A stretch of DNA of 64,000 nt, taken from assembly GCF_000027125.1 (NCBI RefSeq), contig NC_017626.1. One strand, 5' to 3'. This DNA is from Escherichia coli 042 (GTDB lineage: Bacteria > Pseudomonadota > Gammaproteobacteria > Enterobacterales > Enterobacteriaceae). The notes below the pieces were generated by a model. That model ran no database searches and had not been told where the DNA came from. It saw nothing but the letters and a program-made list of their open reading frames with translations. Below, piece by piece: positions 33,543 to 34,966 of this stretch (positions are counted from its first letter, which is position 1; each line of letters starts with the position of its first letter). The position numbers were made by a program, and so were the translations under genes.

Positions 33543-33703
33543 ATTTTCTGTTTTCTTGCATCCTTGCGAATCTTTATCTGATGTTGATTCAACAGGTTAG
33601 TGTGAAAACTCTTCTCGGTGCATTTTGATTTTACCCTACGCATCGGGAAAAATTGGTGGTCAAATCTGGGGTCAGGTTAGTTCGATAATGGAGTGACCCC
33701 CAT

Positions 33704-34966
33704 ATATCCCTTACCGACGCAAAAATCCGCACCCTCAAGCCTTCTGATAAACCCTTTAAAGTCTCCGATTCTCACGGTCTGTATCTGCGGGTCAAGCCGG
33801 GTGGCTCCCGCCACTGGTATCTCAAATACCGTATTAGCGGTAAAGAATCCCGCATTGCGCTGGGTGCCTATCCAGCCATCTCCCTGTCTGATGCGCGACA
33901 GCAACGTGAAGGTATCCGTAAAATGCTGGCGCTGAATATCAACCCGGTACAGCAGCGGGCTGCTGTACGTGGCTCACGAACACCGGAGAAAGTTTTTAAA
34001 AACGTGGCGCTGGCGTGGCATAAAAGTAACAGGAAATGGTCGCAGAACACCGCCGACCGTCTGCTTGCCAGCCTGAACAATCACATCTTTCCGGTCATCG
34101 GGAACCTACCTGTATCAGAACTTAAACCCCGTCATTTCATTGACCTGCAGAAAGGGATCGAGGAAAAAGGTCTGCTGGAGGTTGCGTCCCGCACACGGCA
34201 GCACCTGAGTAACATAATACGCCATGCGGTCCATCAGGAGTTAATCGATACGAACCCTGCAGCAAACCTTGGCGGCGTGACCACACCTCCTGTCAGACGG
34301 CACTATCCTGCCCTGCCGCTGGAGCGGCTGCCTGAACTGCTTGAACGTATTGGGGCATATCATCAGGGCCGTGAACTGACCCGGCATGCCGTTCTGCTGA
34401 TGCTGCATGTGTTCATTCGCTCCAGTGAACTGCGTTTCGCCCGCTGGTCAGAGATTGATTTCACAAACCGAGTCTGGACGATACCCGCGACGCGAGAACC
34501 CATTATTGGCGTGCATTATTCCGGCCGCGGGGCAAAAATGCGAATGCCGCATATCGTCCCCCTCTCAGAACAGTCCATCGCCATTCTGAAACAGATTAAG
34601 GATATCACCGGTAATAATGAACTGATCTTCCCCGGCGACCATAACCCGTATAAGCCAATGTGTGAAAACACGGTCAATAAGGCACTGCGGGTGATGGGTT
34701 ACGACACGAAAAAGGATATCTGCGGTCACGGCTTCCGGGCAATGGCATGCAGTGCGCTGATGGAATCGGGTTTATGGGCAAAGGACGCAGTAGAACGCCA
34801 GATGAGTCATCAGGAGCGCAATACCGTGCGCATGGCTTATATTCATAAGGCAGAGCACCTGGAAGCCCGCAAAGCGATGATGCAGTGGTGGTCGGATTAT
34901 CTGGAAGCATGCCGAGAATCTTATGCACCGCCTTATACAATTGGTAAAAATAAGTTTATCCCATAG
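33704..34966 (+). CDS. int: HPI P4-type integrase; canonical start codon apparently mutated (ATA)
   Basis: ORF track starts at internal Met 33923, but 72 upstream in-frame codons encode the conserved integrase N-terminus (I)SLTDAKIRTLKPSDKPFKVSDSHGLYLRVKPGGSRHWYLKYRISGKE...; codon at 33704 is ATA; no ATG/GTG/TTG between in-frame stop at 33686 and 33923. Confidence 0.75.
   Translation: MSLTDAKIRTLKPSDKPFKVSDSHGLYLRVKPGGSRHWYLKYRISGKESRIALGAYPAISLSDARQQREGIRKMLALNINPVQQRAAVRGSRTPEKVFKNVALAWHKSNRKWSQNTADRLLASLNNHIFPVIGNLPVSELKPRHFIDLQKGIEEKGLLEVASRTRQHLSNIIRHAVHQELIDTNPAANLGGVTTPPVRRHYPALPLERLPELLERIGAYHQGRELTRHAVLLMLHVFIRSSELRFARWSEIDFTNRVWTIPATREPIIGVHYSGRGAKMRMPHIVPLSEQSIAILKQIKDITGNNELIFPGDHNPYKPMCENTVNKALRVMGYDTKKDICGHGFRAMACSALMESGLWAKDAVERQMSHQERNTVRMAYIHKAEHLEARKAMMQWWSDYLEACRESYAPPYTIGKNKFIP

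Follow-up and report, generated by a model that had tools for sequence, protein, structure and literature searches.

The window (the whole 64-kb stretch of DNA analysed) carries the Escherichia coli form of the yersiniabactin high-pathogenicity island (HPI), inserted at asnT and provided with a P4-type tyrosine integrase gene, int. The features that bear on the start of int all lie on the plus strand and are as follows.

33420–33448, plus strand: promoter of tRNA-Asn, with TTGACA, a 17-nt spacer and TAATAT (10 of 12 consensus matches)
33467–33542, plus strand: tRNA-Asn(GTT), the asnT insertion site of the island (found by ARAGORN, and by RefSeq at identical loci, with mtfA upstream)
33527–33543, plus strand: left-junction att core of 17 bp, CCAGTCAGAGGAGCCAA, found nowhere else in the window
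33543–33703, plus strand: int leader (5′UTR), 161 nt, nearly identical by alignment to the Klebsiella and Raoultella int leader
33690–33693, plus strand: Shine–Dalgarno core GGAG, 10 nt 5′ of the start position and invariant across all aligned alleles
33704–33706, plus strand: start position of int, ATA where the ancestral ATG stood (G to A at 33706; from sequence, alignment and RefSeq CDS starts)
33704–34966, plus strand: HPI integrase frame, 420 codons and a stop, otherwise uninterrupted (from translation, Pfam and motif scan)
33923–34966, plus strand: alternative 347-aa ORF from Met74, without the arm-binding domain (first canonical start, with a weak AAGG 10 nt upstream)

Direct reading and translation placed the upstream in-frame stop of int, a TAA, at 33686–33688; the frame then passes through W-S-D-P-H to the ATA at 33704–33706, continues into SLTDAKIRTLKPSDKPFKVSDSHGLY... 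and ends with a TAG at 34964–34966. A canonical initiation codon is therefore absent from the conserved N-terminus (M-SLTDAKIRTLKP) of the window int, where the orthologues have ATG. The earliest in-frame ATG, GTG or TTG in the ORF listing is the ATG at 33923, which opens the 347-aa ORF, and the in-frame codons from 33689 to 33923 include near-cognates only, namely the ATA at 33704, an ATC at 33725 and further CTG, ATT and ATC codons downstream. Among these near-cognates, the ATA at 33704 alone has a Shine–Dalgarno motif upstream (GGAG, 10 nt away). Direct reading, the ORF list and the codon scan thus confirmed the preliminary description of the locus, in which an ATA was reported at the expected Met codon, with no ATG, GTG or TTG from the stop at 33686 to 33923. 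The position given there for the internal start was also correct, but its numbering, as Met73, was not: with the start position counted as codon 1, the ATG at 33923 is codon 74, and initiation there would cost 73 residues.

Pfam recognized three domains in the 420-codon product: an arm DNA-binding domain (PF13356, residues 3–87, E = 6e-24), a central, SAM-like domain (PF22022, residues 98–191, E = 1e-22) and the catalytic domain (PF00589, residues 224–384, E = 2e-19). Because the arm domain occupies residues 3–87, a start at Met74 would delete nearly all of it, in agreement with the earlier statement that translation needs either the non-canonical ATA or an internal Met, and that the internal Met removes the arm-binding domain. 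The catalytic motifs were all found, in the form of IRSSEL (R239), GAKMR (K278), HGFRA (H342 and R345), MSHQ (H369) and AYIHK (Y379), with the R-K-H-R-H-Y residues assigned by family consensus. The gene is the same as that of the Yersinia HPI, ICEKp1 and ICEEc1 integrase (intB; P4-type, tRNA-Asn sites), and the leader of 161 nt, the three Pfam domains and the catalytic motifs are common to the window int and the HPI/ICEKp1 family. Over 1263 nt, it differs from the K. pneumoniae ATCC 13883 copy at 34 nucleotides and from the Raoultella copy at only seven; in addition to ATA for ATG, the differences from the latter include L29R, E88V, L149Q, M172I and R271H. It also differs in belonging to an island with no right-hand att site, the right end being judged by proxy (see below).

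Other routes to a product from this region were considered and rejected. The ATG at 33688 opens an ORF of three codons only (ATG GAG TGA); the GTG at 33693 immediately adjoins the Shine–Dalgarno core and, being out of frame with int, would give an 80-aa product unlike an integrase; and a promoter-like match at 33895–33924, considered as a source of the Met74 ORF, would begin its transcript past the Met74 ATG. The mini-ORF ATG GAG TGA (33688–33696) overlaps the GGAG of int, and is invariant in all the E. coli, Klebsiella, Raoultella and pks-island copies aligned.

The int gene lies 161 bp downstream of tRNA-Asn, in the same orientation and behind a conserved leader. In ICEKp1, int likewise lies 161 bp downstream of tRNA-asn and is expressed as an asn-int co-transcript from the asn promoter, attenuated by stem-loops in the leader (PMC13023037). 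By analogy with this orthologous system, read-through from tRNA-Asn probably transcribes the window int in the integrated state. The predicted fold of the window leader has three stem-loop regions, with a stability no greater than that of shuffled sequence (z = −0.38), and the start codon is unpaired in it; we therefore give the G-to-A change no structural meaning, and rejected the idea that it acts via the structure of the leader. With regard to translation, initiation at AUA in E. coli has been measured at about 1–2% of that at AUG, with values of 0.02–3% across constructs (bioRxiv 10.1101/063800), which implies that very little full-length Int should be made. For the AUA of the window int, the most likely outcome is near-silencing, with full-length Int close to absent.

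In order to place the ATA allele among other copies of the gene, we turned to complete genomes. Megablast of positions 33620–33800 matched 2329 of the 5426 complete E. coli genomes, often with 100% identity, and alleles were counted with 33-mers placed so that each 28-nt seed covers position 33706. The ATA allele was present in 919 complete E. coli genomes, with one copy in each. Haplotype-specific queries found the ATG full-length-type HPI allele in 621 complete genomes, an ATG haplotype with T at 33708 (ATG/T33708) in 409 and the pks-type int, also with ATG, in 276; these three queries supersede an undifferentiated ATG query, whose 1287 genomes mixed HPI int, pks-island int and other contexts. 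ATA accounts for about 47% of the HPI-type int copies in complete E. coli genomes and is the commonest allele, and the ATG full-length type for about a third, a class defined by sequence in which the openness of the frame was checked in the sampled loci only. Leader and int together match the window at 100% identity in at least 25 genomes. The ATA is therefore no peculiarity of this strain, as had been supposed, but the most frequent HPI int allele. It had also been suggested that the A at 33706 might be an error for a true G. Prior plausibility of a single-base difference is all that speaks for a sequencing or assembly error in the record, whereas the A is shared by 919 independent complete genomes and by 11 of the 38 metagenome contigs retrieved, and stands on at least 11 int haplotypes, so that the probability of such an error is practically nil.

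Alignment with other E. coli int genes, which the preliminary description proposed as a check, showed ATG with an otherwise identical leader in many of them. In K. pneumoniae ATCC 13883 and Raoultella planticola ATCC 33531, too, the leader is otherwise the same and the start is ATG, and the pks-island integrase of Nissle 1917 starts with ATG; the occurrence of ATG in Klebsiella, Raoultella and the pks-island int indicates that ATG is ancestral and that ATA was derived within E. coli. A 23-mer taken from the beginning of the int coding sequence matched two species only in a contig scan, which did not recover Yersinia. Searches of the accessible literature found no account of the ATA allele.

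Several copies of related integrases are of separate interest. On contig OGOU01001349.1 (L010:13195–14681), a pks-island integrase adjoining clbS and clbQ has a leader and first ~20 codons identical to those of the window (33543–33790), ATA included, and a remainder of pks type, ~79% identical; this mosaic is either the outcome of gene conversion between two asn-tRNA islands or an assembly chimera. E. coli YJ1 and CUVET25-1155 (L059 and L062) have an HPI-type int with ATG, T at the equivalent of 33708 and 420 intact codons, with a DUF6387 gene 5′ of int and no tRNA annotated within 1.4 kb upstream, a sign that this HPI/ICE copy may sit in another, or a composite, setting. In E. coli noe1104 (L053:1–80), a frameshifted tyrosine integrase is annotated just past tRNA-Ser(CGA), the equivalent of window positions 32386–32475, on its upstream side, and points to another island remnant at that tRNA gene.

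A second lesion of the gene is already known, as a truncated intB without bp 124–470 (Paauw et al. 2010, PMC2801613). We found a 347-bp deletion with a frameshift, flagged by RefSeq as a pseudogene, at six loci (L004, L016, L020, L040, L060 and L061), and the deletion was present in six of the eight sampled loci of the ATG/T33708 haplotype. It matches the published bp 124–470 and, like ATA, is a common inactivating lesion of int in an otherwise intact HPI. The two differ in that the deletion lies on the ATG/T33708 background and shifts the frame, whereas in the window a single base is altered and the frame stays open.

Database annotation of the ATA allele is divided. The int gene adjoins mtfA–asnT in 10 of the 10 sampled ATA genomes, and in all ten RefSeq gives an intact 1263-nt CDS that starts exactly at the ATA and has no pseudogene flag. 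It had been asked earlier whether intact HPI integrases also start with ATA; on paper, in the RefSeq annotation, they do, but functional evidence of such a start was not found. At least 1000 contigs have exactly the 420-aa sequence on record, its first residue given as M, and the identical 347-aa sequence that begins at Met74 is also recorded for at least 1000, under the name 'integrase [Escherichia coli]'. Pipelines thus disagree on int, with 420 amino acids from the ATA in RefSeq and 347 from Met74 in others, and, because the same DNA is annotated in both ways, a call of 'int present and intact' is unreliable as a proxy for mobility of the E. coli HPI.

The preliminary description held that loss of the start codon would be likely to immobilize the island, and we therefore looked at the other requirements for excision. 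The att core CCAGTCAGAGGAGCCAA has one match in the 64 kb, even with up to two mismatches allowed. The window ends 11 bp past fyuA, with the right border outside it, so the border was judged by proxy in two complete genomes: that of 504239, a carrier of the ATA allele, and that of MS6198, in which int matches the window at 100% identity. In both, fyuA is followed by ~650 bp and then by the chromosomal genes for a yeeJ-like inverse autotransporter, shiA, amn and yeeN; neither has a 17-bp att core beside fyuA, and neither has an ORF of at least 30 aa in the ~650-bp gap. The gap between int and ybtS in the window is 193 bp only. A pair of att cores flanking the island in direct orientation was thus not found, the core being single in the window and missing from the right end by proxy, and no island-encoded Hef or Xis was found in the ORF scan past fyuA in the proxies or in the int–ybtS gap of the window. 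The next att cores past fyuA lie within chromosomal tRNA-Asn genes, at 9.4 kb on the opposite strand and at 11.3 kb on the same strand. Cores in tRNA-Asn genes were located at L069:11522–11538 (minus strand), L069:13407–13423 (plus strand) and L005:11748–11764 (minus strand), and these chromosomal sites are the only potential partners left for the attL of the island.

Schubert et al. (2009, PMC2606025) describe a deletion of the right border, with loss of the repeat, in every HPI-positive ECOR strain except one, and call the island 'fixed'. The island of the window agrees with this form in its asnT insertion and, in the proxy genomes, in the absence of a direct repeat past fyuA; no mention of the start-codon allele was seen in the text consulted. 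Excision of the HPI requires the island-encoded Hef (PMC2704930). With the right att repeat gone and no excisionase, the island would already be unable to excise, and ATA is not the immobilizing event. Since Hef is needed and no space is left to encode it, to blame the start codon for the immobility misplaces the cause: genomes with the same allele are already without the fyuA-side att core or an excisionase-sized ORF.

Selection on int was studied in full-length copies from the fetched complete genomes together with the 38 metagenome contigs, which were retrieved with an allele-neutral pattern, and substitutions were scored as unique events against the Raoultella copy. Events on ATA haplotypes only gave a nonsynonymous to synonymous ratio (N:S) of 17:6 (omega about 0.9), those on ATG haplotypes only gave 7:2 (omega about 1.1) and all events together gave 32:10 (omega about 1.0). 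Pairwise comparison of diverged intact relatives of int gave omega values of 0.09–0.13, with which the 32:10 of the E. coli gene is incompatible (binomial p = 1e-11), fitting neutrality instead. Omega is inflated at short divergence, and as a control meant to offset this we used the adjacent ybtS, which itself has few substitutions; in the same ten genomes or contigs, N:S was 24:8 for int against 6:9 for ybtS (Fisher p = 0.027). Purifying selection downstream of the ATA was accordingly not seen, the counts of 17:6 on ATA haplotypes and 32:10 overall, in small samples, standing against an omega of ~0.1. The replacements on ATA haplotypes are often radical (L61Q, R92P, L121R, L204P, L231P and L295P), and in three sampled ATA alleles Met74 itself is changed to Ile (M74I). 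All 17 of the sampled full-length ATA copies, which make up 11 haplotypes, have an open 420-codon frame, as residual selection would predict. However, 3.6% of point changes make stops and the probability of no nonsense change in 23 substitutions is 0.44, so the open frames are no evidence of selection, and the lack of nonsense changes and frameshifts in ATA alleles was rejected as a sign of it because the comparison has no power. Judged by these substitutions, int in E. coli is evolving almost neutrally, whichever start codon it carries.

It seems most likely, at a probability of roughly 80%, that the ATA is a decay lesion in the relic integrase of an already fixed E. coli HPI. A derived G-to-A change has turned the ATG of int into ATA, which would leave ribosomes with only a near-cognate AUA behind a normal Shine–Dalgarno sequence and reduce full-length Int to about one hundredth of a normal level that is itself low; initiation at Met74 may also yield some protein without the arm. 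The gene would be a relic under no constraint that has acquired two or more common lesions, ATA and the 347-bp deletion among them, and drift or hitch-hiking may have made the ATA allele frequent while homologous recombination carried the island through E. coli. With the right att site lost and no excisionase, ATA would have little consequence, and we infer that the int of the window has no residual function.

The chief alternative is that the ATA is a working, deliberately weak start that keeps Int very low yet useful, for example by limiting Int-mediated rearrangements among tRNA-Asn genes or by allowing Int to act in trans on other asn-tRNA islands. True AUU starts are known in infC and pcnB, in which purifying selection acts on the protein and the AUU has been conserved. 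The window int resembles these genes in having a near-cognate AUN behind a normal Shine–Dalgarno sequence, with core and spacing intact, and in all the sampled genomes RefSeq does use the ATA as the start; but the ATA is a derived polymorphism, and omega for int is about 1. A non-AUG start is not conserved among int orthologues, ATG being found in Klebsiella, Raoultella, the pks-island int and more than 1000 E. coli copies, of which at least 621 are of the HPI. Initiation at AUA is measurable (bioRxiv 10.1101/063800), and none of the 17 sampled ATA alleles has lost the full ORF or the catalytic motifs, although, as calculated above, open ORFs carry no statistical weight and the changes confined to ATA haplotypes are mostly non-synonymous, often radical, at an N:S of 17:6 and an omega of about 0.9. 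Further att cores in nearby tRNA-Asn genes, on both strands, might offer sites of action, but the island itself, without attR or an excisionase, offers Int nothing to act on. Because the start is unconserved among orthologues and constraint is relaxed, we consider a working weak start unlikely.

It might instead be supposed that the functional product is the 347-aa protein from Met74, which would retain the core-binding and catalytic domains, lack the arm and have an altered role. This is the longest ORF with a canonical start, and the pipelines of many submitters annotate it, with the weak AAGG 10 nt upstream as its possible ribosome-binding signal; Met74 is, however, also present in ATG alleles, where it is a plain internal residue, it is replaced by Ile in three sampled ATA alleles, and constraint is relaxed over the whole gene. 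In lambda-type integrases, arm binding is needed for recombination-competent intasomes, so the Met74 protein could not move the island, and a function for it is highly improbable. Selection might also have acted on the ATA itself, making it an attenuation that was favoured rather than the result of decay alone. Either a trickle of Int, ~1%, would be retained to act on chromosomal tRNA-Asn att cores or on a neighbouring pks island, or the loss of Int would itself be favoured because it stops harmful rearrangements between att sites. Selected attenuation, if true, would account for the presence of ATA at about 47% of E. coli HPI copies and for the open frame in all the sampled copies, but we regard it as very unlikely.

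We therefore return to decay of a relic gene as the preferred reading. The ATA of int is a frequent, already catalogued allele of a well-known gene and a case of ordinary decay; what is new here is modest, and consists of the frequency of the ATA allele and the inconsistent annotation of int. Its practical value lies in annotation and in screens for island mobility, and its biological weight is small: the integrase of the fixed E. coli HPI was known before to be dispensable, and ATA is a further common lesion in it.
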